Below, one piece after another: positions 1-15,928 of a stretch of DNA of 64,000 nt. Each line of letters begins with the position of its first letter. Positions within the stretch are counted from its first letter, which is position 1. The DNA comes from an uncultured Planctomycetales bacterium (GTDB lineage Bacteria > Omnitrophota > Gorgyraeia > Zapsychrales > JANLHA01): the NCBI GenBank assembly GCA_964474085.1, contig CAYYRJ010000010.1, forward strand, positions 12,606-76,605. The letters are read 5' to 3'. The notes beneath the pieces are model-generated. The model was not told where the DNA came from and ran no database searches. It saw nothing but the letters and a program-made list of their open reading frames with translations. A program made the position numbers and the translations under genes.

Positions 1-3
1 ACG

Positions 4-363
4 ATGTCTTACACCTACGCCGCCACGATCGACCGCGTTGTTGACGGCGACACGCTCTTGGTTCTCATTGAGGCCGGTTTTGGAATCATCGTGCGTGACA
101 AACTCCGTCTGCGCGGAATCGACACGCCGGAATTAGGGACGGCTGAGGGCGAGCGAGCCAAAAAATTTGTCGAGAAGCTTCTTCCTGTCGGTTCTACCAT
201 CGTCATCAAATCGCACAAATGCAAGACCGATCTGCACGGCCGCTTCGTCGCGGACGTGTTCTATCGGCAAGACGTTACGGATGCCGATGAAATTCTCAAA
301 GACGCCGTGTACCTTAACCAACAGCTTCTTGATGAAGGCTACGCCGTTCGAATGGCAGAATAG
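4..363 (+). CDS. Staphylococcal nuclease (SNase/thermonuclease)-like protein
   Basis: 119-aa ORF carrying VVDGDT and RLRGIDTPE motifs typical of the SNase fold. Its ATG is at pos 4, so the true 5' end could lie upstream of the window. Confidence 0.6.
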   Translation: MSYTYAATIDRVVDGDTLLVLIEAGFGIIVRDKLRLRGIDTPELGTAEGERAKKFVEKLLPVGSTIVIKSHKCKTDLHGRFVADVFYRQDVTDADEILKDAVYLNQQLLDEGYAVRMAE

Positions 364-370
364 CAATGAA

Positions 371-997
371 ATGATGAACATCGAAAAAGCCCAGATCCGG
401 CAGATCACTTCCCGCTTTGAGCTCAAAGCCGACATTGTTATCAAACCTGGTTCTTGGCAGGGGCAGACCTTGGCCTTGCGCGGACTTGATTTTCCCGGCT
501 TTCGCTCGAAGAAAGGCCGGGCGCTGCGCGAACATTTGCTCAAGGTCATTGGCAGTGTTCCATTTTTGGCTGTAAAGAAATTCGGCAAGGACGCTTTCGT
601 GCGCCACAGCGTCGAGGTTTTTTATTGTCCCGGCGAAAATGATCCGGCCAAAGTGGTTAGAAACGGCCGCTGTCTAAACCAAGAACTTCTGGATCTTAAG
701 CTCGCCAAACTTTATGATGAAAATAAACGTAAAATTGATTTTTCAAAAAGGAGTTTTAAAATGTACGACGAACAGATCGATCTGGTGACCGGCAATTTCA
801 AGGCTGAGGTGTGCATGTACATCAACGACTGCAAACAGTACCTACGTGCGGCCAGCGAAGGCAAACCGGTCAATATGGAAAAGGGAGAATTCGATCCCAC
901 GGATGAAGAATTTCTGATCATCTACGGCTTAAAGCAACTCAAAGACATGTGCATGCGGCAGGCCCGCCGGGCCAGATTGGATTGGCAGGGCAATTAA
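371..997 (+). CDS. hypothetical protein, N-terminal SNase-like region (ALRGLDFPG)
   Basis: Same frame as ORF-track entry 167..997, but the first in-frame ATGs (371/374) follow the stop of the upstream gene (tagcaatgaaATGATG); the longer ORF overlaps gene 1 in another frame. Contains an internal AAGGAG-ATG at 746-765. Weak similarity to the SNase motif of gene 1. Confidence 0.45.
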   Translation: MMNIEKAQIRQITSRFELKADIVIKPGSWQGQTLALRGLDFPGFRSKKGRALREHLLKVIGSVPFLAVKKFGKDAFVRHSVEVFYCPGENDPAKVVRNGRCLNQELLDLKLAKLYDENKRKIDFSKRSFKMYDEQIDLVTGNFKAEVCMYINDCKQYLRAASEGKPVNMEKGEFDPTDEEFLIIYGLKQLKDMCMRQARRARLDWQGN

Positions 998-1051
998 AAG
1001 ATAAGCAATGGCAGCGTAAGTAAGGGGGACGCTGATGTGTCCCTGGGAATA

Positions 1052-1084
1052 CCTATACAATTCCCTATACAATACCTATACGAT
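1052..1084. repeat. three direct 10-bp repeats cctataca(a/g)t spaced 11-12 bp apart (iteron-like)
   Basis: Read directly: units start at 1052, 1064 and 1075. Helical-turn periodicity in a 270-bp non-coding gap. Confidence 0.5.
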
Positions 1085-1088
1085 ATTC

Positions 1089-1247
1089 TAGGGACCGTTT
1101 CTTTTGGGCTCATTGCAGAGCTAAAGTTTATGGCTGAAGTGTCCCGGGTAGTTACGTTATTTAAAAATGAATTGATATTTGTAAATAGTGGGGGCACTTT
1201 AGTAGTAACTCAATGTCAGTGTTCGGGATATTGGAAAACGGTCCCTA
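1089..1247. repeat. 12-bp perfect inverted repeat tagggaccgttt / aaacggtcccta flanking ~135 bp
   Basis: Left arm at 1089-1100, right arm at 1236-1247, read directly. Lies between the SNase-like pair and the AT-rich esterase gene. Confidence 0.5.
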
Positions 1248-1266
1248 AAATTATTGGAGTGTTTGC

Positions 1267-2157
1267 TTGGTGATTTTTAAAAAATTTTTTATAAAATGGC
1301 TTTTCATTATTTCTCTGGGGATAAATTTAATTTTATGGATTCTCATTGGGCTGAGGTTAACTACGCTCGAGTGCATACGGGATGCATTTACGGGCCCAAA
1401 TGTTGAAGAAAAAAGAGTTATCTTGCATAAAGTCACCAGTGAGTTTCAAAACATTCCGACGGACATTCGAGTGCTCGTTCCAAAAAATATTCAAAAAGAG
1501 AAACAATATAAGGTTCTTTACATCCTGCCAACGGTTCCTCAGCGATGGGATTTTTGGTGGAATAACGGACTTCACGAGGCTGTGAAGTATGATTTGTGTA
1601 ATAAATATGATTTAATTTGTGTTTGTCTTTCGCTTGAGAAAATGCCTTGGTTTGGGGATCATCCGAGCAATCAAAAAGTCCGACAAGAAAGTTATATTGT
1701 TCGTTTTGTCGTTCCATTTATCGATGAGCATTACCCAACTTTACAAAAACCTCAAGGACGCTTGCTCTTAGGAATCAGTAAGGCGGGGTGTGGGGCGTTT
1801 ACGTTGCTGCTTAGATATCCTGAAATCTTTGGCAAGGCGGTGGCTTGGGATGCTCCTTTAATGTATAGAAACATTAAACAATTGCCCGAGTCGGGTCTGG
1901 CGGATGTTTTTGGGACGGAAGAAAATTTTAATCAATACTATTTTCCTGATTTATTAAAAAAACAAGCCAAGGCGTTAAGTGGTCAACCGGCCCGATTGAT
2001 TTTGATGGGTTATGGGGAAATCAAAGACCAAGTCGAGCAGGCACACTCGCTGATGGAATCTTTACATGTTCCGCATATTTATGATAACCGTATTGAGCGA
2101 GAGCATAAATGGCAGAGCGGGTGGATGCCTGACGCTGTTAAATATTTGATGCAGTAG
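1267..2157 (+). CDS. putative esterase (alpha/beta-hydrolase, esterase D / enterochelin-esterase-like family)
   Basis: 296-aa ORF with a GISKAGCGAF nucleophile-elbow-like motif and an N-terminal hydrophobic segment. Markedly AT-richer than its neighbours. Start uses GTG/ATG at 1267. Confidence 0.55.
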   Translation: MVIFKKFFIKWLFIISLGINLILWILIGLRLTTLECIRDAFTGPNVEEKRVILHKVTSEFQNIPTDIRVLVPKNIQKEKQYKVLYILPTVPQRWDFWWNNGLHEAVKYDLCNKYDLICVCLSLEKMPWFGDHPSNQKVRQESYIVRFVVPFIDEHYPTLQKPQGRLLLGISKAGCGAFTLLLRYPEIFGKAVAWDAPLMYRNIKQLPESGLADVFGTEENFNQYYFPDLLKKQAKALSGQPARLILMGYGEIKDQVEQAHSLMESLHVPHIYDNRIEREHKWQSGWMPDAVKYLMQ

Positions 2158-2364
2158 ATGTTATTAAATGGGTTTTATAACTTTAGGTAATGGGACGCAA
2201 GCCTATAAATTATTCAAAAAGTTTTTATTCTAGACAAATTGCCTCCATAAAATAATTAGGCAGCCTTTCTATTTCGGATTTATGATGAACTAACTTTAAT
2301 TTAACGATTTTTGGGGTGTTGCTGTTTTAACTGGCTTTAGTATAAATTAATAAAGGAGAAAAAA

Positions 2365-3453
2365 TTGAGTATACACGCACACGGCTATGCCAATCATTCT
2401 GCAGCAGACAAACTCGCCCCATTCATGTTTGAACGCCGTGATCCACGAGGGCAAGATGTGGTTATCGAGATCAAATTTTGCGGGGTCTGTCATTCTGATA
2501 TTCACTCTGCCCGCAATGAATGGGGATGGACAACCTATCCGTTTGTTCCGGGCCACGAAATTATCGGGCACGTGAAAGCTGTTGGAAATAAGGTGTCCAA
2601 ATTTAAGGTGGGTGATTTAGTCGGTGTCGGCTGTCTGGTTGACAGCTGCCGACATTGTGAATCATGCGAGGATGGGCTGGAGCAATATTGTGAAAACGGA
2701 TTTACAGGCACTTATGGCAACGAAGATAAAATCGGCGGCACCAAACATCCCAAAACTTTCGGCGGCTACTCTGACATCATTACCGTCGACGAGCGCTTTG
2801 TCTTGAGTGTTCCAAAGAATCTCGATCCAGCTGCGGCCGCGCCTTTATTATGTGCCGGGATTACGACCTATTCGCCTTTGAACCATTGGAAAGTAGGCGT
2901 AGGGCAAAAGGTTGGCATTATCGGCTTAGGCGGGCTTGGACATATGGGGGTCAAATTTGCCCATGCGATGGGGGCACGTGTAGTGATCATCACCACTTCC
3001 CCTGAAAAAGCAGCTGATGCAAAAAAACTTGGTGCGGATGAAGTTTTGATTTCCAAAGACAGCAAAGCCATGGAGGATGCGCAAAACAGTTTTGATTTTT
3101 TGCTTAATACCATTCCCGTCGGGCATGATGTGGATCCATATATGCTGTTATTAAAACGTGATGCCGTTATGGTAGTTGTAGGATCTGTGGAGCCTTTAAA
3201 AAAAGCTAACGGCATTAATTTTATTTTTAAACGACGCTCCATGGCAGGGTCATTGATCGGCGGTATTCCCGAAACACAACAGATGCTGGATTTTTGTGGT
3301 AAGCATAACATTACATGCGATATTGAAAAAATCACCATCCAAGATATTAACGCGGCCTATGATCGCACGGTCAAGGGGGATGTGAAATATCGTTTTGTTA
3401 TCGACATGGCGTCCCTCTCCAAGGACGGAGATAAAAATAAAAATGTAAAATAA
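2365..3453 (+). CDS. NAD(P)-dependent Zn alcohol dehydrogenase (cinnamyl-alcohol dehydrogenase / YahK-like)
   Basis: 362 aa with GVCHSDIH and GHEIIG zinc-ligand motifs and a GLGGLGHMGVKFA Rossmann motif. TTG start 7 nt after an AAAGGAG RBS. Confidence 0.85.
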   Translation: MSIHAHGYANHSAADKLAPFMFERRDPRGQDVVIEIKFCGVCHSDIHSARNEWGWTTYPFVPGHEIIGHVKAVGNKVSKFKVGDLVGVGCLVDSCRHCESCEDGLEQYCENGFTGTYGNEDKIGGTKHPKTFGGYSDIITVDERFVLSVPKNLDPAAAAPLLCAGITTYSPLNHWKVGVGQKVGIIGLGGLGHMGVKFAHAMGARVVIITTSPEKAADAKKLGADEVLISKDSKAMEDAQNSFDFLLNTIPVGHDVDPYMLLLKRDAVMVVVGSVEPLKKANGINFIFKRRSMAGSLIGGIPETQQMLDFCGKHNITCDIEKITIQDINAAYDRTVKGDVKYRFVIDMASLSKDGDKNKNVK

Positions 3454-3456
3454 CAT

Positions 3457-4003
3457 TGGAATTATTGTCGTTATCGGGGCGGGATCAATTGGTCAGGCTA
3501 TTGCTCGTCGGGTAAGCGTTGGCAAGCATCACGTGCTTGCAGATTTGCGTCAAGAAAATGCCGATGCAGCGGCAAAAATTTTAAAGGATGCCTGTTTTAG
3601 CGTTAGCACGCAAAAGTGGATGTTTCCGCGCGCGCGTCTGTTCAAGCTTTGGTTAAAACAGCGACCTCTTTTGGAGAAATTTACGGCGTCATCCATGCGG
3701 CTGGCGTTTCTCCGAGTTAAGGATCGCCAGAGACGATTTTGAAGATTGATCTTTACGGAACAGCACTTCTGCTCGAGGAGTTTGGCAATGTTATCGCAAT
3801 CGGGGGTTCGTGTGTCGTTATTTCTTTATCGGCGCATGATCGAGTTATACCCGGCACGACGAGCTGGAACTCCCGACGAGGTTGGCGTGGTTGGTACGCT
3901 TCTTATGGGGCGTGACGGCACATTTATAACAGGCAGTGATTTTTTGATGGACGGGGGTGTGACAGCGTCTTATTGGTACGGAGAACTTGCTTCTAAGCCA
4001 TAG
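3457..4003 (+). pseudogene. short-chain dehydrogenase/reductase (SDR) remnant with at least 3 frameshifts and an internal deletion
   Basis: The SDR sequence is spread over three or more frames: IGIIVVIGAGSIGQAIARR in frame 1, VDVSARASVQALVKTATSFGEIYGVIHAAGVSPS in frame 3, PETILKIDLYGTALLLEEFGNVIAIGGSCVVISLS in a further frame, and the SDR tail RAGTPDEVG...FITGSDFLMDGGVT in ORF 3746-4003. The YxxxK segment is missing and there is no start codon. Confidence 0.65.
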
Positions 4004-4228
4004 AAAGGATATGGAATATCGAAATGAAAAGAAACGGTACACAAGTATCTTCGAAAGCTCTGCCGAATATTTCATAGGAGCAGAGGTATGGGTGCCAGTT
4101 CGTTTCGGAGACACCGTGTATCTTATGTCCCTGGTTTGTCAGGCATCAAATCCGGCATTGACAAAGATTGCTCAATCAGTATACTGCAAGTAAGTAAATG
4201 CTTACGTACAGTTGTTTTTAAGGAGACA

Positions 4229-4813
4229 ATGGTGATAAAAAAATCAACGCCGCGCCAGCAGGAAATTGTCGAAGCTGCGCGGGCGATTATTTTTAGCGAA
4301 GGGATTGAAAGTTTGACGGTCCGAAAGATTGCCGATGAGCTTAAAATTACGGACGGCGCTTTATACCGCCATTTTAAAAGCAAAGACGAAATATTAAGTT
4401 TGCTGATCGATGACATTGAGATGACCTTATTGTTTACAATTACCGAAGCCTCTCAAAAGGCAGAGGATTTCTTAAAGAAATTGGAAAACATTTTCTCGGC
4501 ACATCTTCATTATGCAGAAAAACGCAAAGGAGTTACTTTTATTATAATCGCCGGTTTAAAAGACAAAAAATTACAAAAGAAAATGTCCGCAGTTATCAGT
4601 AAATATTTAAAAGTGATCGAGAGTATTTTGAAACAAGGATCCAAAGAAGGTCGATGTCGGGTGGATATAAATTTTGAATCAGCAAGTATTGCGTTTTTGG
4701 GGATAATTCAGGGATTGGTAACGATTTGGAGACTTGGAGGGTACCACGATGCAATTCGCAAAGACCAAATTAACTCTATGTTTGATCTCTATAAGAGGGG
4801 CATTATGAAATAA
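4229..4813 (+). CDS. TetR/AcrR family transcriptional regulator
   Basis: N-terminal HTH LTVRKIADELKITDGALYRHFKSKDEIL. AGGAG RBS at 4221-4225 places the start at 4229, not at the ORF-track 4088. Confidence 0.8.
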   Translation: MVIKKSTPRQQEIVEAARAIIFSEGIESLTVRKIADELKITDGALYRHFKSKDEILSLLIDDIEMTLLFTITEASQKAEDFLKKLENIFSAHLHYAEKRKGVTFIIIAGLKDKKLQKKMSAVISKYLKVIESILKQGSKEGRCRVDINFESASIAFLGIIQGLVTIWRLGGYHDAIRKDQINSMFDLYKRGIMK

Positions 4814-4887
4814 AAAATTATTCAAAAAATTATTAAGGGGTTCAGGTAAATTGTAATCCTGAAGAGGTTTTTTTGAGATGGTCGGGC

Positions 4888-4928
4888 CGCCATCTGATTT
4901 TAGTGATCAGATGGCGTTTATTTTTTTA
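4888..4928 (+). terminator. rho-independent terminator
   Basis: 11-bp perfect stem cgccatctgat / atcagatggcg with a 7-nt loop, followed by tttattttttt. Confidence 0.6.
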
Positions 4929-4944
4929 CGATAGGAGCAGACCA

Positions 4945-7206
4945 ATGAAAGTAACGTTAAGACTTATTCTTTCTTTAATCTCGATTGTGGCCGTTGTGGC
5001 TTTTTCATTTTCATTTTGGCAGGCCCGACAAGAAGAAGATAGGCTCAAGACGGAATTAGAAAAAAGAGCGAGTTTTGTCGCGGATAGTTTGCGGATTTCT
5101 GTCGAGCCGATGCTGGCAACCGACGGGAACAGTCAATATTTACAGCGGCTCGTGGACCGATTTTCTAATCGTGAAAAACTTGTGGGGATTGATATTCACG
5201 ATGTCAGAGAGAACTTGATCGTTAATTCAAAAGGGATCAAGCCCCAGCTGGAAGCAGACCCCCGAGTTTTATCGCAGGCGATTGAGGAAGTTGAGCGGAC
5301 AGGCAATGAGCACGGCAGCTCTGTTACTTTAGAGGGCACAAATTTATATGCTTATACTGTTCCGATCGTGACTGGAGAAAAGACATCACATGTTTTGACG
5401 CTCTTTTATGATGTGGATTATATCCGCGATCGTGTTAAGAGGCTTTTGATCAATAATTTCTGGAGAGCATTGACTCAGGCTCTTTTGATCGCTTTGACGA
5501 CGTTTATTATTATTTTTTATAACGTCATGGCTCCGATCAGAAAAACGACAATGTGGATCAAAAAGATCCGTAAAGGCGAGCCATCGCGTCCTCTGGATGC
5601 CAGAGAACAGCTTTTATTGGGCCCTTTGGCCTTGGAAATCACTCGAATGGCCAAGAGTTTGGACGTGGCCAGAGCCGCAGCAGATGAGGAAGCTCGTTTA
5701 CGATATTCATCGGAATCCCGCTGGACGCCGCAGCGTTTGAAAGAATTTATCCGTTTAAAATTGGAAGACCGGCCGCTTTTTGTGGTTTCAAATCGTGAAC
5801 CATATATGCATATCAAAAATGGCAAAGACATCGAATGTATTGTTCCAGCCAGCGGTTTAGTTACCGCCCTTGAACCGGTGCTCAATGCGTGCGGCGGGAC
5901 ATGGATCGCACAAGGAAGCGGCAATGCTGATCGTGAAACGGTCGATAAAAATGACAGGATCATGGTCCCTCCGGAAGAACCCAAATACACTTTACGTCGT
6001 GTCTGGGTTGAGAAGGATTTGGAAGAAGGTTTTTATTCCGGATTTTCTAATGAGGGATTGTGGCCTTTGTGCCATATCGCGCATACACGGCCGATCTTCA
6101 GGGCCAAGGATTGGGAGGATTATAAAACGGTAAATCAAAAATTTGCCCATGCTGTTTCCCAAGAGCTCGAAGGTGTTTCAAATCCTTTTGTTCTGATTCA
6201 GGACTATCATTTTGCATTACTCCCGCGTTTGATCAAGCAGTTAAAACCTGATGCAAAGATTGCAATATTTTGGCACATCCCGTGGCCCAATCCCGAATCT
6301 TTTGGGATTTGTCCGTGGAGAAAAGAGCTATTAGACGGAATGTTAGGTGCAGATATCATAGGTTTTCACACGCAATTTCATTGCAATAATTTTATTGAAT
6401 CCGTTGACCGATTTTTGGAGTCGCGGATTGATTATGAACATTTTTCTATATATCGTGAAGGCCATACCAGCCTGGTCAAACCTTTTCCGATCAGTATCAA
6501 TTTTGATTCTGCGAATGGAGATTCAGCGAAGGAAGCGGTGAACAAAGCAGAGCTTTTGAAAAAGTACGGAATTCAAGCTCAATATCTGGGGGTTGGAGTT
6601 GACCGTTTGGATTACACGAAAGGTATTTTGGAAAGGTTCCGGGCCATCGAGAATCTTCTTGACAATCATTCGTCTTTCCGGGGGAAATTTACTTTCGTTG
6701 AACTGGGAGCGCCCAGCCGGACCATGATCCCGAAGTATAAAGAGTTCATCGATGAAATTACCAAAGAGGTCGAGCGGATCAACGCGAAGTTTAAGAAAAA
6801 CAACTGGCAACCGATTCTTTTTTTGATGAAACATCATAGCCATAAAGAGATCCTCCCCTTTTATCAGGCCGCGGATGTTTGCCTGGTGACCTCTTTGCAT
6901 GACGGGATGAACTTGGTCGCCAAGGAATTCATTTCGTCGCGGGCTGATGAACGTGGGGTTTTGGTTTTAAGCCAATTTACGGGGGCGGCAAGAGAGTTGC
7001 AGGACGCTTTGATCATTAATCCCTATGATGTCGTCGAAACCGCGCGCGCAATCAAGTCGGCTTTGGATATGAAGCCGGAAGAACAAAAAGATCGTATGAA
7101 ACGGATGCGCGAAACGGTCCAAAGCAATAACATTTACCGCTGGGCTGGAGAATTAGTCGAGCAATTGACCCATCTGAGGACTGAAAGCGCTGAGAGGGGA
7201 GTTTAA
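4945..7206 (+). CDS. otsA: membrane-anchored sensor-HAMP-trehalose-6-phosphate synthase fusion (GT20 OtsA catalytic domain)
   Basis: C-terminal ~470 aa is a clear GT20 domain (LWPLCHI..., [16 protein letters not shown]). The N-terminus has TM1 (res 5-28), a ~150-aa extracytoplasmic region, TM2 and an amphipathic HAMP-like linker. AGGAG RBS at 4933 precedes the ATG at 4945. Confidence 0.8.
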
Positions 7207-7210
7207 TAAA

Positions 7211-8308
7211 ATGTCGAATTACCTTGATTCATTCTTAAGCTTCACTATTTTTCAAAATAAGGTGCAGGATTACATTGTTTCAATATTGATATTTTTAATA
7301 TCAATTATTGGCTTATCAATCGTTAAAAGGTTTGTCATAAAACATTTGAAAGTGCGGGCAGAAAAAACAGTTTCTGACTTTGATGATTTGATCGTCAGGT
7401 TGATTTCACAAATTGGCTGGCCTGTGTTCGTGGTCCTTTCCGTGTATATGGCGGGCACTTCGTTAATTCTCTTGGAATCCATCAGGCCTTTCATCAAATA
7501 TGCGCTTGTTTTTGTTGTGACAATCCGGACGATATTACTTCTGCAGGAAATTATTCAATACGCGGTGAATAAAACTTTGATTCAGCGGATCGGCGGAGAA
7601 AATCAATCATCAAAAGCGATGATCAATAGTGTGGTATGGATTGTCAAGTGGGGGATGTGGTTATTGGGAGGGATTTTTATCCTCGATAATTTAGGGGTTA
7701 ATATTACGTCTTTAGTCGCGGGTATCGGGATAGGAGGGATCGCAGTTGCTATGGCGTCACAGGCGATACTAGGGGATGCGTTTAGTGCTTTGTCGATTTA
7801 TCTGGATAAGCCTTTTGAGATCGGAGATTTTATTATCGTCGATGATTGTATGGGGACGGTTGAGTACATTGGGGTCAAAACAACACGCTTACGCAGTCTC
7901 TCCGGGGAACAATTAGTTTTCTCAAATTCAGACCTAACGAAGAGCCGTGTCAAGAATTATAAGCGCATGGAAACGCGTCGCATCGCTTTTAAGGTCGGGA
8001 TTATTTACCAGACACCATTAGAAAAAGTTGAAAGAATCCCGCAAATCATCCGTGATATTTTAGAAAATGCCGGAGTAAGAACTGACCGTGTCCACTTCCA
8101 GAGTTTTGGCGATTCATCTTTGATCTATGAAGCTGTCTATTACGTTTTAAGCGCAGATTATAATGTCTATATGGATAAACAGCAGGACATCAATTTTGCG
8201 ATCATGCGGCAATTCGAGAAAGAAGGGATCGAGTTTGCCTACCCGACTCAAACGCTTTATCTAAAAAGTACCTCTTTAGTGAAGGAAGAAAATGTCCGGT
8301 ATTCATAA
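7211..8308 (+). CDS. MscS-family small-conductance mechanosensitive channel
   Basis: Three N-terminal TM helices plus a conserved MscS core (ITSLVAGIGIGGIAVAMASQAILGDAFSALSIYLDKPFEIGDFI). RBS gagggga. Start lies 5 nt after the otsA stop. Confidence 0.85.
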   Translation: MSNYLDSFLSFTIFQNKVQDYIVSILIFLISIIGLSIVKRFVIKHLKVRAEKTVSDFDDLIVRLISQIGWPVFVVLSVYMAGTSLILLESIRPFIKYALVFVVTIRTILLLQEIIQYAVNKTLIQRIGGENQSSKAMINSVVWIVKWGMWLLGGIFILDNLGVNITSLVAGIGIGGIAVAMASQAILGDAFSALSIYLDKPFEIGDFIIVDDCMGTVEYIGVKTTRLRSLSGEQLVFSNSDLTKSRVKNYKRMETRRIAFKVGIIYQTPLEKVERIPQIIRDILENAGVRTDRVHFQSFGDSSLIYEAVYYVLSADYNVYMDKQQDINFAIMRQFEKEGIEFAYPTQTLYLKSTSLVKEENVRYS

Positions 8309-9113
8309 AAGAAAAGTAAATTTCTTCAAGAACGAAGCTGCGTATAAAACCATTTTTCGGCAGAAAGGTATCATGCTTTTTCTTGATTTCGACGGGACAC
8401 TTGCCGATATTGTCGATCATTATAAAAACGCGACTATTCTAAAAGAGAGCAAAGTTTTATTAAGAAAGATCACTAAGATAAGGGATTGTTCGATCGCGAT
8501 CGTCAGCGGCCGGGCTTTGGATGATGTAAAAAAACGGGTTGGTCTGAAAAATATTACCTATGCGGGAAACCATGGACTCCAGATTGAAGGTCCCGGAGTT
8601 AAATCAACAATTTTTGTAAAAATGGGCGATAGAATACGTTTGAAGCTTATCAAGTATGACCTCATGACTCATATCGGGCAGATCAAAGGTATTGTATTAG
8701 AAGATAAAGGCCTTTCAATCACTGCCCATTATCGGCTGGTTAACGGGAGGGATCTGCGTGTATTTAAGAGAAAGTTTTTAGAGTGCCTTGAGCCTTATTT
8801 GCAAAAGAATGAAGTCAGTTTAAACGAAGGAAAGAAAGTTTTTGAGATCAATCCGAAGGTCAGGTGGGATAAAGGAAAAGCGATTTTATGGCTGATCGAC
8901 AATTTTCGAGAAAAAGGTTTTGGCAAAAAAGCATTCCCGATTTTTATCGGTGATGATGTGACCGATGAAACGGCATTCAAAGCGTTAAAAAGAAAAGGCC
9001 TTTGTATCCGTGTGGGAGAAAGTAAATCGTCAGCGGCCCCTTATTTTTTAAAAGATATTAAAGAAGTAGCGTGTTTTTTAAAGACAATCTTAGATTCCAA
9101 AATAAAGTCGTAA
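8292..9113 (+). CDS. otsB: trehalose-6-phosphate phosphatase (HAD family)
   Basis: HAD motif I LFLDFDGTLADI and FIGDDVTDE. Overlaps the MscS gene by 17 nt. RBS gaaggaag. Confidence 0.85.
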   Translation: MSGIHKRKVNFFKNEAAYKTIFRQKGIMLFLDFDGTLADIVDHYKNATILKESKVLLRKITKIRDCSIAIVSGRALDDVKKRVGLKNITYAGNHGLQIEGPGVKSTIFVKMGDRIRLKLIKYDLMTHIGQIKGIVLEDKGLSITAHYRLVNGRDLRVFKRKFLECLEPYLQKNEVSLNEGKKVFEINPKVRWDKGKAILWLIDNFREKGFGKKAFPIFIGDDVTDETAFKALKRKGLCIRVGESKSSAAPYFLKDIKEVACFLKTILDSKIKS

Positions 9114-9124
9114 GGAGAATCAAT

Positions 9125-10918
9125 ATGGATAAAGCTATTGTTGGGAATTGCACGAGTGCCGCTTTGATCAGCCCTGAATGCGCAATCGATTGGTTATGTT
9201 TACCTTTTTTTGATTCCCCGTCGGTATTTGGCCGTATTCTTGATGAGCAAAAAGGCGGGTATTTTCGTATCTGGGCTGAGGATATTATTGAAGTAAAACA
9301 AGAATATGTGCATCACACGCCTATTCTTAAGACGCGATTTAAGACAAAGGACGGTATTTTTGAAGTGATGGACTATATGCCGCGTTTTTTAGCGCATGAT
9401 GGGGAGGTGATCTGCCCGCCGGAAATTCATCGCAATATTTATTTGATCGTCGGCAAGCCGCGGATGATCGTTGAATTTAAGCCTTGTCCCAATTATGGAT
9501 TGGCCCCGGGGAGTTTATCGGTATCGTCCGATTATTTAAAAGTCAATTCCACCCAAGGGGAATACAACAGTTTCTATTTATACTCAAATTTAGATTTTAA
9601 CGCAGTATTGCAAGGTCAGCCGATTGAACTTAACACGTCGAGTTATTTTGTGCTTTCTTATCACGAAAAATTGAGTCTTGTTAAACAAGAGAGAATTTAT
9701 TTGGAGTACGAAAGGACAAAAAGTTACTGGATGGATTGGGTTTATCGGGTCAAAGCTCCTGAAAAATACCGCGAGATCGTCTTGCGGTCTATTATCACTC
9801 TTAAACTGCTGATGTTTCAAAGAAGTGGAGCATTCGTTGCCGCCCCGACGACATCATTGCCTGAAATTGCTGGAAAAGAACGTAATTGGGATTACCGTTT
9901 TTGCTGGGTCCGGGATGCGAGCATGATCATCGATCTTTTTGCGCGCATCGGACACGTCATTGCGTCAGAGAATTTTATGAAATTTATTCTCGGGAGAATG
10001 CTTTTGAAGAATGAAAATATTTCCGTTATGTATGGCATTAACGGTGAGCGTGATATTGAAGAACATGTTCTTAGTCATCTAAGCGGGTATCAAGGTTCCA
10101 AACCGGTACGCATCGGGAATGCGGCATATCGGCAACAGCAAAACGATGTATATGGAGAATTGATCGAGGCGATTTATTCCTATTTTATTATTAATGCCCG
10201 GAGTCAAAGTAATTTTGATGAAGAGCTCTGGACGGTTGTCCGGTCACTTGCTAATCGCGCGATAGAAGTGTGGAAAGAACCGGATTGCGGGATCTGGGAG
10301 CGTCGTGGCCCGATGCAGCATTTTGTGCATTCTAAGATGATGAGTTGGGTGGCCTTGGACCGGGCCGTTAAGATCAGTAAATATATCGGGAAAGAAAAAC
10401 ATGTTAAGCGATATTTAGAAGTTGCCGACGAGATCAAGAAGGATGTATTGAAAAACGGCTGGGACCCGGACCTGAATAGTTTTGTGATGGCGTATGGGTC
10501 AAAAGATCTTGATGCCTCAAACCTTTTGATGCTGCATTACGGATTTTTAGATGTTGCTGATCCAAAAATCGTAGCAACGGTCGAGGCCGCTTACAAGAAA
10601 CTTTTGCGCGATGGTTTTGTGATGCGTTATACCGCGCAAGATGAATTCGGTCTACCGCAAAACGCGTTTATCGTTTGCACGTTTTGGCTTATTGACGCGC
10701 TTTATCTGATCGGACGAAAAGAAGAAGCGCGGGAGATGTTCCATCGGGTCATTGGGTATACGAACAAGTTCGGGCTCTTATCGGAAGGGATAGAACCAAA
10801 AACTGGAGTCTTGGCCGGGAATTTTCCTCAAGGGTACTCGCATTTAGCTCTTGTCCAGACAGCATTTTTGCTGGAAACAGATTATCAATGGCGGGACAGC
10901 GTTTGTTCTTCGTCTTAA
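9125..10918 (+). CDS. glycoside hydrolase family 15 (glucoamylase/trehalase family)
   Basis: GH15 signature RNWDYRFCWVRDASMII and six-hairpin organisation. AAGGAG RBS. Its operon context suggests a trehalase. Confidence 0.75.
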   Translation: MDKAIVGNCTSAALISPECAIDWLCLPFFDSPSVFGRILDEQKGGYFRIWAEDIIEVKQEYVHHTPILKTRFKTKDGIFEVMDYMPRFLAHDGEVICPPEIHRNIYLIVGKPRMIVEFKPCPNYGLAPGSLSVSSDYLKVNSTQGEYNSFYLYSNLDFNAVLQGQPIELNTSSYFVLSYHEKLSLVKQERIYLEYERTKSYWMDWVYRVKAPEKYREIVLRSIITLKLLMFQRSGAFVAAPTTSLPEIAGKERNWDYRFCWVRDASMIIDLFARIGHVIASENFMKFILGRMLLKNENISVMYGINGERDIEEHVLSHLSGYQGSKPVRIGNAAYRQQQNDVYGELIEAIYSYFIINARSQSNFDEELWTVVRSLANRAIEVWKEPDCGIWERRGPMQHFVHSKMMSWVALDRAVKISKYIGKEKHVKRYLEVADEIKKDVLKNGWDPDLNSFVMAYGSKDLDASNLLMLHYGFLDVADPKIVATVEAAYKKLLRDGFVMRYTAQDEFGLPQNAFIVCTFWLIDALYLIGRKEEAREMFHRVIGYTNKFGLLSEGIEPKTGVLAGNFPQGYSHLALVQTAFLLETDYQWRDSVCSSS

Positions 10919-11092
10919 TAGATATCGACGGCAAATAATCAAAATATACTTTTAAAAAGAGTTAGGGTATTATGTTGGGGCAATGTTCTGACGTCCAATG
11001 TCCCGACACCTTTGAGATGTGCTTGGAGTCAAGACACATTTCTGTAGTCGATAGGATTTAATTCTGTTTTTAAAAAATATTGTTAAATAATT

Positions 11093-12172
11093 ATGGTTAT
11101 TATTTTTTGTCTGCTTTTAATTGGTGGAATTATTGCCGGACAGATGTTGGATTTTTCTCGGATGCATGAGATTTTGTCGCTGATGACTTCCATGTGTTTG
11201 GCTTACATTATGATTGAAGTTGGGTTGGAGTTTTCTGTCGATAAAAGAAAAATAAGAAGTTATGGATGGGATTCGATGGTGGCTGTCATTGCTGCCGTGC
11301 TGCCGGCCCTTTTATGGTTTGGTTATTTTGTCTTCTTTATCCACAGTCCCTGGAAGCCTGCAATATTATCTGGACTTTCTTCTGCGCCTACATCTGCAGG
11401 TGTTCTTTTTTCAATGATGATGGCGGCCGGATTAAGTGCAACGTGGGTATTTAAAAAGGCGCGGGTGCTGGCTGTGCTCGATGATTTGGCGACGATTTTA
11501 CTTTTAACACCACTTCAAATTCTCATTGCCGGTTTTGAGTGGGGATCAATAGCGACACTTATTTTAATTTCACTTTTTTTGTTTGCTTCTTTTCGCTGGC
11601 AGAACACCATTGATTGGCCAGTCTCAGAAAATTGGCTTTTAGGGTACGCTGTTGTTTTAACAGCAACATTATTTTTTGTTAAGCACACTACACATATTCA
11701 CTTGGAGGTCCTTGTTCCGGCTTTCATGTGGGGATGTCTGGTGCATATGCCGCAGCAGCACCAAAATCCTGTAGCGAGAAAAATGGTTGGATTAGATACG
11801 ATTGTTAAGGGGCTGTTTATGTTTTTAGTTGGTTTGTCTTTGCCAAAGATTGATCTGGGGTCTATTTCTATAGGATCAACCATTGGACATGTTGTGGTAT
11901 TGACGATATTAGCCAACGTTGGAAAATCCTTTTCTTTGTTATGTTACAGAAAAGAAGCTACATTAAGAGAACGCTTAGCTTTGAGTATTGCGATGTTTCC
12001 CAGAGGAGAAGTTGGGGCTGCTGTTTTAATCATTGGCCTTGGATATGGTTTTAGCGGATTTGAAAATACATTGGCCGTCTTAAGTCTGGCGTTTAATTTA
12101 GTTTTAACAGGAATATTCATTGGAATTGTGATGCGGCTATTGAAAAATAAGGGCGCAGCTGGGCAATTTTAG
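11093..12172 (+). CDS. cation:proton antiporter (CPA superfamily)-like membrane protein
   Basis: 10-12 predicted TM segments with GLEFS and FPRGEVGAAVL motifs resembling the Na/H-exchanger family. Confidence 0.5.
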   Translation: MVIIFCLLLIGGIIAGQMLDFSRMHEILSLMTSMCLAYIMIEVGLEFSVDKRKIRSYGWDSMVAVIAAVLPALLWFGYFVFFIHSPWKPAILSGLSSAPTSAGVLFSMMMAAGLSATWVFKKARVLAVLDDLATILLLTPLQILIAGFEWGSIATLILISLFLFASFRWQNTIDWPVSENWLLGYAVVLTATLFFVKHTTHIHLEVLVPAFMWGCLVHMPQQHQNPVARKMVGLDTIVKGLFMFLVGLSLPKIDLGSISIGSTIGHVVVLTILANVGKSFSLLCYRKEATLRERLALSIAMFPRGEVGAAVLIIGLGYGFSGFENTLAVLSLAFNLVLTGIFIGIVMRLLKNKGAAGQF

Positions 12173-12198
12173 GGCAACCAAACGGAGTCGCTACTGTA

Positions 12199-12227
12199 TT
12201 GACAGAATTGATTTTAGGAAATATAAC
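12199..12227 (+). promoter_or_regulatory. sigma70-like promoter TTGACA-17-TATAAC upstream of the PEPC gene
   Basis: -35 at 12199-12204, -10 at 12222-12227, about 65 nt upstream of the ATG. Confidence 0.4.
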
Positions 12228-12294
12228 CTTTGCAGTTAAATTGATTGAGTAGACTGCCTGCATAATTTTAAGGCTATAAAATATAGGAGAAAAT

Positions 12295-13782
12295 ATGGGA
12301 TCCCTCAAAATACCACGCACGCTTTCAACCCAGCACCCGGACAATGTGACAATCCCTTTTTTTGCTAATCATTCTGTTCTTCGTGGGGACGATGAGATCA
12401 AGGAAGCTTTTTATGCTTTTTCCAATCTCGGTGTCGAGGAGATTATGTGGGACGCCGAAGGCAAGGAAGCCGATGATTTTGTTATTCGAAAATTGATCAC
12501 CGAATATAAAAGTTTTTTTGAAAAGAACCGGATCGGGAAAGATGTTTTTATCAATATCCGTGTTCCTAACCCGCAATACGAAAAAGCAGAGGCCAAAATT
12601 CTTCTTGAAACCTTAGAAAGTATTCCGCGTTCCTATGATACGGCAGAGCTTTTTTATGGCGATGGCGCTTATCCTCCGATTTTTGAAGTTGTTGTGCCTA
12701 TGGCCGACGGAGAAATTATTAAAAAGATTCGTGATTATTATAAGAATGTTGTCATTGGCAAGGAAAAGTCGCGTTTTGTCGAGGGAGAAGCTCTGACGGT
12801 GGGTGACTGGATCGGCCGGTTTGAACCTAAAAATATCAATGTGATCCCATTATTCGAAGATCTTTATTCGATGCTCAATGCGGATGAGACGCTAAGAACT
12901 TTTCTTAAAAACAGAAAAGTAAAATATCAGCGCGTTTTTTTGGCTCGCTCTGATCCGGCGATGAATTATTCGTCCGTGGCAGTGATTCTGGCTTTGCACA
13001 TTGCGCTGGATAAATTATATAAACTTCAAAATGAGATCAATGTCCCGATTTATCCGATTTTAGGGTCGGGAAGTGCGCCCTTTCGCGGGCATTTAACGCC
13101 GCACACGGTAGATTATATTTTAAGTAAATATCCGAGTGTGGCGACGTTTACCATACAGTCGGCATTCAAATATGATTTTCCGGTCAAAGATGTTCAAGGC
13201 GCCATTGAGTTGATTAACAAGACCCAGATAAAGCCGCCGGCGGTTGTTGAAAATCAAAAAGAAGTCTTAAAGATTATCAAAAAAGTTTCTCATGAGTATC
13301 AACGGCAAATTCAGATTTTGGCCCCACTGGTCAATGAAGTCGCAAAATTTGTTCCTAGCCGTCGGATGCGCAAGTTGCACACCGGACTTTTTGGATATTC
13401 CCGTGAGTTAAAAGAAGGGGTTTCCTTGCCTCGCGTTATTTCGTTTTGCGCGGTTTTATATTCTCTGGGGTTGCCGCCGGATATTATTGGTTTAAATGTT
13501 TTGACGGAGAATGAAAAAGATGTTGTTCGCAGTATTTATCCGCGGTTTGACGGGGGGTTAAGAGATATTCTTGAACTGTGGAACCCGGATGTTCTCAAAA
13601 TTATTCCTGCCAGTATTCGCCAGAATATCAAAGATGTTGTTAAGCAATATGATTTTAAGACTAACCCAAAACATCTGGAAATCACCGATGAAATTATCCG
13701 AAACATTCAAAAACGAAATTTTGGCGTTCATTTGACCGATCTGATCACCCGGGCCGGATCAGTTAGAGGGTTTTTGGGCTAG
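12295..13782 (+). CDS. ppcA: archaeal-type phosphoenolpyruvate carboxylase
   Basis: 495 aa with the N-terminal IPRTLSTQHPDN motif characteristic of archaeal-type PEPC (~55 kDa). AGGAG RBS. Confidence 0.75.
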   Translation: MGSLKIPRTLSTQHPDNVTIPFFANHSVLRGDDEIKEAFYAFSNLGVEEIMWDAEGKEADDFVIRKLITEYKSFFEKNRIGKDVFINIRVPNPQYEKAEAKILLETLESIPRSYDTAELFYGDGAYPPIFEVVVPMADGEIIKKIRDYYKNVVIGKEKSRFVEGEALTVGDWIGRFEPKNINVIPLFEDLYSMLNADETLRTFLKNRKVKYQRVFLARSDPAMNYSSVAVILALHIALDKLYKLQNEINVPIYPILGSGSAPFRGHLTPHTVDYILSKYPSVATFTIQSAFKYDFPVKDVQGAIELINKTQIKPPAVVENQKEVLKIIKKVSHEYQRQIQILAPLVNEVAKFVPSRRMRKLHTGLFGYSRELKEGVSLPRVISFCAVLYSLGLPPDIIGLNVLTENEKDVVRSIYPRFDGGLRDILELWNPDVLKIIPASIRQNIKDVVKQYDFKTNPKHLEITDEIIRNIQKRNFGVHLTDLITRAGSVRGFLG

Positions 13783-13834
13783 GAAAATGTTCCAAGCCCT
13801 GTGAGCTGATTTGCAGATCTTTTGTGGAGGCAGG

Positions 13835-14731
13835 ATGAGATTAGGACTTTGTTGTTTATTTGCCCAGGAGCCCATCAAGTTTCGCACGACTAACGCATCA
13901 TCATTAATGAAGTTAAATAAAAAAGATGCGTTAACTAAACTTTCTGCTATTTGTTTGCATAATGCGCGTTCGCTCGTTGAGGCATTGGGTTATTGCGCAA
14001 AGCATGATATCGGCTCATTTCGTGTCAGCAGCCAGATTCTTCCAGTTAAAACCCATCCGCATGTCGGGTACGATGTTTTGGATTTGCCCGACGGTAAAGA
14101 AATTATTAAAGTTTTTGAGAGTTGCAAAGATATTTCGAAGCGATATGACTTGCGGACGGTCTTTCATCCGGACCAGTTTATTGTTTTAAGCTCATCAAAT
14201 CAGGATGTCACCCAGAGGTCTATTGCGGATTTGAATTATCAGGCCGAAGTCAGCGACTGGATTGGGGCGGATGTGATCAATGTCCATGGGGGAGGCGCGT
14301 ATGGGAACAAACAAGAGGCTTTGAGCCGTGTGGCCCGCAATTTAAAGCGCTTATCGAAAGCGGTCCGTAGTCGTTTAACTTTTGAAAATGATGATAAAAC
14401 ATATACACCCCACGACTTATTACCTTTATGTCAAAAAGCCAAAGTCCCTTTTGTTTATGATGTGCATCATCATCGTTGCAATCCGGATACGATGAGTATT
14501 CAAGACGTGACACGTTTAGCTTTGTCGACGTGGAATCGGCAGCCGCTTTTTCATTTGTCGAGCCCTAAAGAAGGTTGGCGTGGCCCCAATCCATCGAGGC
14601 ATCATGATTATATCGATATCCAAGATTTTCCAGAGTGTTGGCGTGGGCTTGATATTACCGTTGAGATCGAGGCCAAGGCCAAAGAGCTTGCTGTTAAAAA
14701 ATTTCATGATTCTTTGTCGCGGATAAATTAA
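13835..14731 (+). CDS. uvsE: UV DNA damage endonuclease
   Basis: MRLGLCC N-terminus, TFENDD and YDVHHH motifs of the UvdE family. GGAGG RBS at 13826. Confidence 0.8.
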   Translation: MRLGLCCLFAQEPIKFRTTNASSLMKLNKKDALTKLSAICLHNARSLVEALGYCAKHDIGSFRVSSQILPVKTHPHVGYDVLDLPDGKEIIKVFESCKDISKRYDLRTVFHPDQFIVLSSSNQDVTQRSIADLNYQAEVSDWIGADVINVHGGGAYGNKQEALSRVARNLKRLSKAVRSRLTFENDDKTYTPHDLLPLCQKAKVPFVYDVHHHRCNPDTMSIQDVTRLALSTWNRQPLFHLSSPKEGWRGPNPSRHHDYIDIQDFPECWRGLDITVEIEAKAKELAVKKFHDSLSRIN

Positions 14732-14790
14732 AACAGGTTATTGTGGTATGTCAGATATTCAAAATTTTATCTAACCCCAAGGGGGAATCG

Positions 14791-15243
14791 ATGAGCCAAA
14801 TACATTTCAAAGCCAAAGATTTTTTTATTTCTTTAAATAAAGATACGATGGGTCTGGTCGATGAATTTTATGATGAGAATATTGTTTTTCGTGATCCATT
14901 AGTCGAGATTAACAACAGAAAACAAATGAAAAATTACTATGCGAATATGTATAAAAATGTAGAGTCGGTCGCGTGGAGTTTTTCAGACGAGATTAGCGAT
15001 AAGGACAACTGTGTTCTTGCATGGAAAATGACCCTGCTAGCCAAAAATTTTAATGGCAACAAGCCTCTGGTTGTTGACGGAGTTTCAGTGATCAAGTTTG
15101 GCGGTAAAGAAGGCAAAGCCATTTATCATCGGGACTATTTTGATTTGGGCGCTTTTGTTTATGAAGGGTTGCCGGTTTTAGGATCCATGGTCCGATTTGT
15201 TAAAAAGAAAATGGCCAGTCATCAGAACGAGTGCTGTGCTTAA
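14791..15243 (+). CDS. SnoaL/NTF2-like domain protein
   Basis: ~150 aa with the fold pattern of the SnoaL-like polyketide cyclase/NTF2 superfamily. RBS aaggggg. Confidence 0.45.
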   Translation: MSQIHFKAKDFFISLNKDTMGLVDEFYDENIVFRDPLVEINNRKQMKNYYANMYKNVESVAWSFSDEISDKDNCVLAWKMTLLAKNFNGNKPLVVDGVSVIKFGGKEGKAIYHRDYFDLGAFVYEGLPVLGSMVRFVKKKMASHQNECCA

Positions 15244-15278
15244 TTTTCTTGAGATTAAAAAATTAAAAAGGGGTGGAT

Positions 15279-15815
15279 ATGAACATCAGCAAATTCTTTG
15301 TTATCGGGATGGTTTTTTTGCTCGCCGGCTGCAGCAGTTCATTGCCTAAACTCAAAACAGTTGATAATATCGACCTTAAACGTTATATGGGGCCTTGGTA
15401 TGTTATCGCGTGTATTCCGACTTTTATTGAAACAAAAGCTTATAATGCCGTTGAAGAATATCGTCTGCTTGATGACGGAAGCATCGACACGGTTTTTACT
15501 TTTAATAGCGGCCGTTTTGACGGGCCTAAGAAGCGATACAATCCCCGCGGTTTTGTCGTCGACAAGGTGAATAACTCAACCTGGGGGATGCGTTTTATCT
15601 GGCCGTTTAAGGCAGAATTTCTGATTACTTATCTAAGCCCCGACTACAGCCAAACGATCATTGGCCGCAACAAGCGTGATTATTTTTGGATTCAGGCGCG
15701 TACCCCGCAAATTCCCGAAGAGGATTATCAACAGTTGCTGGGTATTTTGGCATCGCAAGGTTACGATATAAGCAAAGTTCGCAAGGTTCCGCAAAGTTGG
15801 CCGGACAAGCAATAG
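15279..15815 (+). CDS. blc: bacterial lipocalin (Blc) outer-membrane lipoprotein
   Basis: Lipobox LLAGC, followed by YMGPWYVIA and other Blc motifs. Confidence 0.8.
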   Translation: MNISKFFVIGMVFLLAGCSSSLPKLKTVDNIDLKRYMGPWYVIACIPTFIETKAYNAVEEYRLLDDGSIDTVFTFNSGRFDGPKKRYNPRGFVVDKVNNSTWGMRFIWPFKAEFLITYLSPDYSQTIIGRNKRDYFWIQARTPQIPEEDYQQLLGILASQGYDISKVRKVPQSWPDKQ

Positions 15816-15867
15816 CAGCAGAATAAGTTTTTAAAAATATTTTTTACAGACTTGCGAAAAATGTTTC

Positions 15868-15906
15868 TTGACGCGTGTACCGTATCATCGTAATATTGCG
15901 ATATTA
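15868..15906 (+). promoter_or_regulatory. promoter TTGACG-17-TAATAT with overlapping 16-bp palindrome TAATATTGCGATATTA (putative ArsR operator)
   Basis: Read directly. The palindrome overlaps the -10 element, consistent with autoregulation. Confidence 0.45.
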
Positions 15907-15928
15907 TGATTTATATGAGGAGAGCCGG

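Follow-up and report, generated by a model that had tools for sequence, protein, structure and literature searches.

Can a bacterium wire the synthesis of a protective sugar directly to a membrane receptor, within a single polypeptide? This question is raised by a 64-kb stretch of DNA from an uncultured bacterium of the Omnitrophota (contig CAYYRJ010000010.1, deposited under Planctomycetales; hereafter the window, with all coordinates given on the + strand), in which the first gene of a putative trehalose operon encodes a trehalose-6-phosphate (T6P) synthase of the OtsA type preceded by a transmembrane (TM) sensor module with a HAMP-like unit. The gene lies directly downstream of a candidate cation riboswitch, and genes for a mechanosensitive channel (MscS), a T6P phosphatase (OtsB) and a trehalase-like enzyme of glycoside hydrolase family 15 (GH15) follow it. 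We consider it moderately probable that the whole constitutes a salt- or osmotic-stress trehalose operon under control at two levels, transcription and enzyme, and weigh below the evidence for each link of this chain and the explanations that compete with it.

The fusion itself can be taken as real. OtsA had been described in the original prediction as one gene with an N-terminal extension of about 300 amino acids (aa), with the reservation that a missed frameshift might have joined two open reading frames (ORFs). The frame is unbroken over its 753 codons, and the Pfam model Glyco_transf_20 (PF00982) is placed at aa 279-742 (402.8 bits versus a cutoff of 32.5, E = 2.6e-120), so that the extension measures approximately 277 aa. 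Although the listed ORF opens at TTG 4873, we assign the real start to ATG 4945, because an AGGAG motif (4933-4937) precedes it with a spacer of 7 nt, because homologues share an N-terminal beginning, MK(V/I)TLRL, at the equivalent position, and because the sequence around 4873 belongs to an RNA element; TTG 4873, which falls within the riboswitch and terminator presented below, was rejected. Among the best 120 homologue clusters listed for the full-length query (56-98% identity, with a common layout), 113 comprise proteins of 737-814 aa covering at least 96% of the query, the other seven being gene calls that are truncated or shorter. In a collection with a single genome for each species, a scan with an N-terminal alignment as query confirmed at least 494 genomic stretches, and in the best 80 of these (hereafter the related loci), truncated ones aside, the N-terminal module continues straight into the domain of glycosyltransferase family 20 (GT20) in the same frame. 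The junction is also devoid of gaps in the alignment of the N-terminal regions of 39 diverse relatives (A1; 34-62% identity to the window protein). The question whether GT20 fusions with TM helices and HAMP occur in related genomes therefore receives a strongly positive answer, with at least 120 homologue clusters and at least 494 stretches; a word-index search with aa 1-287 alone retrieved only 23 short fragments, and complete homologues were obtained with the full-length query. The AlphaFold2 model of the full-length protein has a mean predicted local distance difference test score (pLDDT) of 84.8. An artefact in which two genes were joined by frameshift or mis-assembly is contradicted by the uninterrupted frame, the lengths of the homologues and the continuity of the junction; it is practically inconceivable and we regard it as excluded, and the domain architecture of the protein as near certain.

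The enzyme half of the protein (the C-terminal 476 aa) is 34% identical to OtsA of Escherichia coli. Twelve residues which we take to be the substrate-binding and catalytic residues of the E. coli enzyme (R9, G22, W40, Y76, W85, D130, H154, R262, K267, R300, D361 and E369) have identical equivalents in the window protein (R284, G304, W320, Y364, W373, D420, H444, R554, K559, R592, D653 and E661), and all twelve are invariant in 76 full-length family members, in which residue invariance was also checked. R284, the equivalent of R9, is the arginine that binds the acceptor phosphate. The conservation of these active-site residues and the neighbouring otsB point to OtsA function, and T6P synthase activity is highly probable on this basis. 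The domain nevertheless appears to represent a divergent clade: it stays below both OtsA equivalog cutoffs (TIGR02400, 435.4 bits versus 564.85; PRK14501, 498.2 versus 634), which speaks against this assignment, and the GgpS model matches it as well, at 305 bits. An enzyme making another sugar phosphate, e.g., glucosylglycerol-phosphate or some other GT20 product, would account for these scores. We consider it very unlikely, given that the OtsA models score far above GgpS, that all checked contact residues for glucose-6-phosphate and UDP-glucose are conserved, that a trehalose-phosphatase gene above its own equivalog cutoff adjoins the fusion here and in most relatives, and that a trehalase-like GH15 gene lies within the operon. 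The solved OtsA/Tps1 structures (E. coli 1GZ5/1UQT; M. thermoresistibile OtsA 5JIJ) share with the window protein the GT-B fold and the active-site residues, as well as the pairing of the gene with otsB, but they align to the GT20 part only, and none to aa 1-274. The characterised OtsA/Tps1 enzymes are, to our knowledge, soluble, whereas the window protein, with its additional 277-aa TM-Cache-TM-HAMP-linker region, is a predicted integral membrane protein.

What, then, is this additional region? Kyte-Doolittle windows exceed 1.5 only at aa 1-27 and 172-199, which agrees with the initial description of two TM helices flanking an outside domain of about 150 aa (here aa 26-174). The 20 residues after TM2 include seven K/R and a single D/E (K+R minus D+E = +6), and the loop side is roughly charge-neutral. 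This strong positive bias after TM2 argues for a topology with both termini inside, aa 26-174 outside and the GT20 domain in the cytoplasm, which is where UDP-glucose and glucose-6-phosphate occur. A cleavage of TM1 as a signal peptide was considered and thought unlikely, as the model shows one continuous helix at aa 2-58, as in PDC sensors; it would in any case leave the topology of the remaining protein as it is. The AlphaFold2 model of the module, built on A1 (mean pLDDT 84.9), consists of this long helix, an alpha/beta core at aa 63-156 and helices at aa 158-210 and 219-256, i.e., the layout of a Cache/PDC domain, in which a long N-terminal helix leads into a PAS-like alpha/beta core between two TM helices. 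Foldseek aligned the whole module with a TM-Cache-TM-HAMP model of WalK (E = 1.2e-10, 282 columns), the A1 profile found the WalK extracellular domain in the PDB (E = 2.7e-4), and the NCBIfam WalK model aligns to aa 3-251 of the window protein (E = 1.8e-7). Of the two folds initially suggested for residues 30-190, Cache or CHASE, model, Foldseek and profile search thus select Cache, with the WalK extracellular domain as closest fold match. Pfam gave no match at E <= 1 on the first 277 residues of the window protein, Cache-clan models and HAMP included; when each of the 39 relatives was scanned, matches were obtained to SMP_2 (20 sequences), HAMP (15), sCache_3_2 (5), dCache_1 (4), CHASE8 (4) and sCache_4 (3), and PF17203 is precomputed for some acidobacterial family members. 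The module is composed of TM1, a WalK-like single Cache domain, TM2 and HAMP. Its identity to the N-terminal module of WalK (YycG) is only about 15%, and WalK continues to a PAS-DHp-CA kinase that signals via a response regulator, whereas the window protein has a glycosyltransferase as its output and carries no kinase or receiver. The family varies modularly, as receptors typically do: the protein variants P0121, P0125 and P0126 (617-626 aa) consist of TM1, a loop of about 20 aa, TM2, HAMP and GT20 without a Cache domain, and P0144 (913 aa) has two tandem Cache modules ahead of TM2.

The connection between receptor and enzyme is the part of the module that is most informative. In the models, the two helices that follow the Cache core are separated by a loop at aa 211-218 and form a helix-loop-helix. 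P197, W204, G211 and E231 are invariant in the 39-sequence alignment, and the residues that mark a HAMP unit follow TM2 in the expected order: P197, then I/W/I/I at heptad spacing, G211 followed by E/D, a connector, and the second amphipathic helix (AS2) opening at E231. The unit thus has the HAMP layout, right after the last TM helix, with a proline at the start of the first amphipathic helix (AS1), G211-E212 at its end and a glutamate at the start of AS2. The HAMP-like amphipathic linker proposed at first is borne out by this P...G-[DE]...E signature and by the Pfam HAMP matches among the relatives. Every indel between P197 and R284 in the 39 sequences sits in the HAMP connector, and the stretch from AS2 to GT20 (aa 225-277) contains zero gaps despite the 34-62% identity. 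It is also the best-conserved part of the module, with a mean top-residue frequency of 0.70-0.75 (0.73-0.75 in the linker), the Cache domain being the least conserved (0.45). E249, A250, L252, R253, W260, T261 and L265 are invariant both in this alignment and in the 76 full-length proteins. In the full-length model AS2 runs as one helix to aa 256, followed by a turn at W260-T261, a helix at aa 262-273 and strand beta1 of GT20 at aa 278-282; R284 is on beta1, approximately 28 residues past the end of the AS2 helix. Small or hydrophobic residues at positions 228, 232, 235, 239, 242, 246, 250 and 253 keep an unbroken spacing of 3-4. Linkers that transmit signals are fixed-length, invariant helical connectors, and passive tethers look otherwise. 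Because the linker helix is invariant and fixed in length, we infer a functional coupling of the receptor module to GT20 rather than a passive tether.

The main rival to this coupling is that the N-terminal module is a passive membrane anchor or dimerisation scaffold, the relic of a receptor that has ceased to signal, which would place T6P synthesis at the inner membrane, for instance near MscS or transporters, or for the sake of membrane protection. In a tether, differences in length and sequence should be of little consequence, yet the AS2-to-GT20 stretch is without indels across phyla and holds seven invariant residues; the HAMP signature residues are invariant as well, and the Cache domain persists from Omnitrophota through to Acidobacteriota, with R76, E77, G81 and D86 conserved in it. 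A number of observations nevertheless weigh against signal gating, and most of them would suit an anchor. The Cache-less natural variants, which keep merely TM1, a short loop, TM2 and HAMP, show that the periplasmic domain is dispensable in some lineages (a hint that what cannot be lost is the core of membrane helices and HAMP). Within the module, conservation is lowest in the Cache domain, no ligand-binding residues or ligand pocket could be assigned in its predicted structure, and we know of no small-molecule ligand established for the WalK extracellular domain. Pfam HAMP (PF00672) is absent from the window protein at E <= 1, and the 15 relatives that match it do so weakly (best E = 7.9e-5); the AlphaFold2 models are monomers, and the HAMP four-helix bundle of a homodimer is outside their scope. 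Furthermore, the GT-B active site lies within one monomer, so that control by a HAMP dimer would have to take a route that is not established and for which we know of no precedent. Finally, the analysis of the window is computational throughout. With the gap-free invariant linker and the HAMP signature set against these points, the anchor is disfavoured and we hold it to be unlikely, and the evidence from the sequence family slightly favours a signal-gated enzyme.

Proteins that combine a sensor, a HAMP domain and an enzyme are known with GGDEF, adenylyl cyclase or phosphatase outputs. The cyclases of the YfiN/DgcN type (TM-PAS-like-TM-HAMP-GGDEF) and the mycobacterial HAMP-adenylyl cyclase Rv3645 have, like the window protein, a sensor and HAMP wired to an enzyme, and in all of them HAMP is linked to the output by a helix whose register is fixed. 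Their outputs, however, are second messengers made at active sites across the dimer interface, and the output here is a metabolic enzyme with its active site within the monomer. A functional analogy is offered by BetP, ProP and OpuA, which unite osmosensor and effector for compatible solutes in one membrane protein and respond without new expression; these are transporters whose cytoplasmic domains sense K+ or the internal ionic strength, and they have no homology to the window protein.

A further layer of control, unnoticed in the original prediction, is encoded directly upstream of the gene. An nhaA-I RNA was detected there as the sole Rfam family in the whole window (40.4 bits versus a gathering score of 37, with all 55 model positions matched), and this leader RNA contains the conserved GGUCGGGCCGCC loop-stem. 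The P2 stem-loop of the aptamer reads GAGAUGG-UCGGGCC-GCCAUCU, and its 3' arm (GCCATCT in the DNA, 4889-4895) is at the same time the 5' arm of a 12-bp hairpin (4888-4916) that is followed by the run TTTATTTTTTT. This hairpin is the strongest terminator-like site between 4000 and 14200, and it dominates both the minimum-free-energy and the centroid fold. As the P2 arm is shared with the terminator, the element would be designed as an ON switch, in which a ligand-stabilised P2 prevents termination.

RNAs of the nhaA-I class are Li+-responsive riboswitches (White et al. 2022, PMC9646797). The motif has been reported in Proteobacteria; rare terminator-bearing variants, found only in Deltaproteobacteria, have C for U at one position (position 54) and respond to Na+ ("Na+-II"), and the C-to-U mutant responds to Li+, Na+ and NH4+ (PMC9646797). 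Among 944 nhaA-I RNAs there were 16 associations with otsA and three with mscS, and the RNAs so associated were suggested as possible Na+ sensors for osmotic stress (PMC9646797). In our dataset, 10 of the 80 related loci carry the same RNA family upstream of the fused otsA and in its orientation (L001, L002, L009, L010, L019, L025, L030, L032, L040 and L050; 38.3-54.6 bits, all above the gathering score); these loci belong to metagenome-assembled genomes (MAGs) of Omnitrophota, Elusimicrobiota and Verrucomicrobiia. An alternative hairpin that uses the 3' arm of P2 is present in all 11 copies, the window included, and is followed by a U-run in six; in L002 the hairpin sequesters the ribosome-binding site. 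The genes between the RNA and otsA encode small membrane peptides or Na+-related transporters (Na_H_Exchanger in L025 and L001, Na_Ca_ex in L040, DUF1646 in L050), and the riboswitch together with these Na+-related neighbours therefore lends independent support to a salt-stress operon.

All 11 copies read GGUCGGGCC, with U, where the D. propionicus construct reads AGCCGGGCC; our putative mapping of position 54 to that nucleotide was derived from the sequence of the construct, and on this mapping the mark of the Na+-II subtype (C at the equivalent of D. propionicus C54) is found in none of them. The copies thus resemble Li+-I/Na+-II riboswitches in scoring above the gathering score of RF03057, in the GGUCGGGCCGCC loop-stem and in a terminator platform like that of the Na+-II examples, but differ from the riboswitches of PMC9646797 in occurring outside Proteobacteria and in combining a terminator with the U of the Li+-I type. 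Because the window RNA pairs a terminator with U, its ligand cannot be called from the sequence. On this evidence, the riboswitch is very probably functional. Three facts count on the other side where a salt-responsive operon is concerned: the window copy lies just 3.4 bits above the gathering score, the U in all 11 copies could mean that the ligand is Li+ rather than Na+, and the riboswitch is present at only 11 of 81 loci, a large acidobacterial clade being without it.

Small ORFs of 65-71 aa with one hydrophobic helix are located between nhaA-I and the next gene in three Elusimicrobia loci (L010:9769-9966, L019:4414-4614 and L025:1170-1385). They share a common C-terminus (...LKHVFKLF / ...FVFKIKVF), the one in L010 has no Pfam match, and they may represent a conserved, riboswitch-controlled membrane peptide. 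A second nhaA-I copy is found in L040 (Elusimicrobiales) at 19145-19192 on the - strand, approximately 10 kb from the first.

Taken together, these elements allow the following chain to be proposed. At the level of transcription, the nhaA-I element in the leader would act as a cation-dependent ON switch: without ligand, the hairpin and its T-run would terminate transcription, and with a bound cation (Li+ and/or Na+) P2 would hold the GCCAUCU arm and RNA polymerase would read on into the operon. At the level of the enzyme, the product of the first gene would be a dimeric inner-membrane receptor with a cytoplasmic catalytic domain, in which the Cache domain, or the TM helices themselves, would detect an extracytoplasmic or membrane signal; this signal could be osmolality or ionic strength, the state of the envelope or a small ligand. 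It would pass via TM2 to the HAMP unit, from whose AS2 a rigid helix of invariant length leads on, ending about 20 residues before the GT20 strand beta1 that carries R284. The state of HAMP might thereby alter the position or the pairing of the two GT20 N-domains and switch T6P synthesis on or off, and OtsB would then release trehalose. In the lineage of the window, MscS (solute release on down-shock), GH15 (removal of trehalose) and a cation/proton-exchanger-like protein would be co-expressed. What the analysis establishes is the layout of domains, the topology and folds, the conservation of the catalytic residues, the spread of the family and the matches to riboswitch and terminator; from these we infer that the protein makes T6P and forms dimers, what kind of signal it receives, how and in which sense the enzyme is gated, and which cation the riboswitch binds.

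The arrangement of the genes fits such a unit (Table 1). MscS, OtsB and GH15 had been noted as following the fusion at near-zero spacing or with overlaps, and their domain matches as well as their junctions confirm this (a gap of 4 nt between OtsA and MscS, an overlap of 17 nt between MscS and OtsB, and a gap of 11 nt between OtsB and GH15). The GH15 protein exceeds the Pfam cutoffs for both of its families and scores 431 bits against a cutoff of 820 with the NCBIfam model TreH1; a comparison with solved structures found no relative at E <= 1e-5. Its start is ATG 9125, with an AAGGAG of its own upstream; GTG 9071, which would create an overlap of 43 nt, was rejected since the Pfam match begins only after M19. 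Between 10919 and 11092 no terminator-like site was found on the + strand, and the Na_H_Exchanger-like gene that comes next is probably the last of the unit; an orthologue of its product in L001 (66% identity by tblastn) is encoded between the riboswitch and the fused otsA. On the upstream side, a TetR-family regulator (Pfam TetR_N at aa 60-103 and TetR_C_4, counted from 4088) ends with a stop codon at 4811-4813, and only 24 nt (4814-4837) separate it from the riboswitch start at 4838. With this spacing, the promoter of the operon must be located inside the TetR gene, unless TetR is co-transcribed with the leader. The order of TetR and riboswitch is also present in L002, where a TetR of 57% identity holds the same position.

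Table 1. Features of the putative trehalose operon and of the sensor-OtsA protein, with positions in the window.
Feature	Start	End	Strand	Details
TetR-family regulator gene	4229	4813	+	Listed ORF from 4088; likely start M48 at 4229
nhaA-I RNA aptamer (Li+-I / Na+-II riboswitch family)	4838	4895	+	Rfam RF03057
Predicted intrinsic terminator, expression platform of the riboswitch	4888	4927	+	12-bp stem 4888-4916; T-run 4917-4927
Sensor-HAMP-OtsA fusion gene	4945	7206	+	753 aa, single continuous ORF
TM1	4957	5019	+	aa 5-25, by hydropathy; in the model part of helix aa 2-58
Single Cache/PDC sensor domain, predicted periplasmic, WalK-like	5020	5466	+	aa 26-174
TM2	5467	5535	+	aa 175-197, by hydropathy; ends in invariant P197
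HAMP-like unit	5536	5673	+	aa 198-243: AS1 198-212, variable connector, AS2 225-243
Conserved gap-free linker	5674	5775	+	aa 244-277: AS2 continuation, turn, short helix into GT20 beta1
GT20 domain, probable T6P synthase	5776	7203	+	aa 278-753; PF00982; Foldseek TM-score 0.82-0.90 between model and OtsA/Tps1 structures
MscS-family mechanosensitive channel gene	7211	8308	+	PF00924, PF21082 and PF21088 above cutoffs
OtsB T6P phosphatase gene	8292	9113	+	TIGR00685, 158.7 bits versus cutoff 68.05; PF02358
GH15 trehalase-like hydrolase gene, predicted cytoplasmic	9125	10918	+	PF00723, E = 1.9e-65; TREH_N (PF19291)
Na_H_Exchanger-superfamily membrane protein gene	11093	12172	+	PF00999, E = 2.9e-12

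How far does this organisation extend beyond the window? The best 80 loci are from Omnitrophota (some labelled Planctomycetales), Elusimicrobiota, Acidobacteriota/Terriglobia (the majority) and Nitrospirota, and also from Syntrophus, Syntrophorhabdus, Eisenbacteria, Verrucomicrobiia, Ignavibacteria and Dormibacterota; their identity to the window protein is 58-84% in the GT20 part and 33-71% in the N-terminal part. An exhaustive profile search of 1.84 billion representatives produced 282 matches at E <= 1e-30 and 1100 at E <= 1e-10. When an acidobacterial (Sulfotelmatobacter-like) protein was used as query, one clade filled the best 120 clusters listed, at 85% identity or more, and all of these homologues came from metagenomes or MAGs. 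Among uncultured bacteria of soil, peat and groundwater the family is very frequent. Of 72 related loci, at least 42 have OtsB as the gene next after the fusion (L068 being a further case by Pfam only); MscS was found in three of the 72, with the same position as in the window only in L001 and L002, and GH15 in two of 75 (L001 and L006). The conserved core therefore consists of sensor-OtsA and OtsB, and MscS and GH15 are restricted to close Omnitrophota relatives: the proposal that synthesis, release and degradation of the solute are encoded together is valid for the window but not as a general package of the family.

In the acidobacterial clade, a second trehalose route (TreT-like) and DUF5752 are linked to the fusion. 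An operon at L068:8511-15188 comprises genes for a DUF4118-HisKA_3 histidine kinase, the sensor-OtsA, an OtsB-like phosphatase, DUF5752 and a TreT-like protein.

The distribution of neighbours bears on another explanation, in which the receptor is real and its signal is not osmotic. The cue could come from the envelope or from nutrients, it could be a periplasmic sugar (trehalose feedback), desiccation or cold, and salt would then come into play solely through the riboswitch, which a minority of lineages possess. Small molecules, such as the citrate or pyruvate of solved structures, are the usual ligands of single Cache domains, and most family members, i.e., those of the acidobacterial clade, are without riboswitch, MscS and GH15, their operons adding DUF5752 and the TreT-like gene and adjoining a DUF4118 histidine kinase. 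We have no direct argument against a non-osmotic cue, which differs from an osmotic one only in the signal itself; the regulatory context, however, is always related to cations or salt where it is present. A non-osmotic signal is accordingly to be regarded as somewhat doubtful, and we retain the salt- or osmotic-stress operon as the preferred reading.

Elsewhere in the window, a 1230-aa ORF (34775-38467, +) combines GT4 domains, a type I phosphodiesterase/nucleotide pyrophosphatase and an endonuclease/exonuclease/phosphatase in an unusual three-enzyme fusion; upstream of it are an acyltransferase gene (33312-34778) and a 760-aa ORF without Pfam match (31033-33315). Further genes for ion homeostasis near the operon encode P-type cation ATPases (24127-26820 and 40896-42872, +) and a CNNM/CorC-type transporter (44863-46170, - strand), at none of which the Rfam scan found a riboswitch. 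Of the ORFs of at least 220 aa, 33 out of 35 are on the + strand, the GC skew is positive across 1-16000, and no tRNA genes were found in the 64 kb.

The claim that a signal-gated, membrane-bound OtsA is not a described architecture stands in part. We found no publication on a sensor-HAMP-GT20 architecture within the searchable literature, but the protein is common in public data: thousands of database entries bear the plain name "trehalose-6-phosphate synthase", one JGI record is called [quoted passage not shown] and a second JGI name has the addition "membrane protein affecting hemolysin expression". The link between the riboswitch and otsA is already known, having been mentioned in passing (PMC9646797). 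What is new is that otsA genes behind nhaA-I can be receptor fusions, and that this RNA occurs with terminators outside Proteobacteria. The result would thus place in a biological context the associations of Li+/Na+ riboswitches with otsA and mscS, which the discoverers of this class left unexplained.

We see the chances as evenly balanced that the family constitutes a large, undescribed class of one-component TM receptors with a metabolic glycosyltransferase as output, in which HAMP would relay an extracytoplasmic or membrane signal and switch T6P synthesis on within seconds, and no kinase, second messenger or new transcription would be required; such a class would be spread over many phyla and very abundant in soil Acidobacteriota. 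Salt, drought and cold are stresses against which trehalose is a major protectant, and its synthesis in bacteria is usually described in terms of transcriptional control and bulk ionic effects on a soluble enzyme. With OtsA fused to a receptor, the logic of control would differ, as one membrane protein would both sense and synthesise, and the outputs known for HAMP domains would be extended beyond signalling enzymes to a metabolic one whose fold belongs to another class. If true, this would be the first coupling of HAMP to a GT-B enzyme and a direct molecular sensor of osmotic or desiccation stress in soil bacteria, which, given the abundance of the family, could matter for the survival of soil communities through drying and rewetting.

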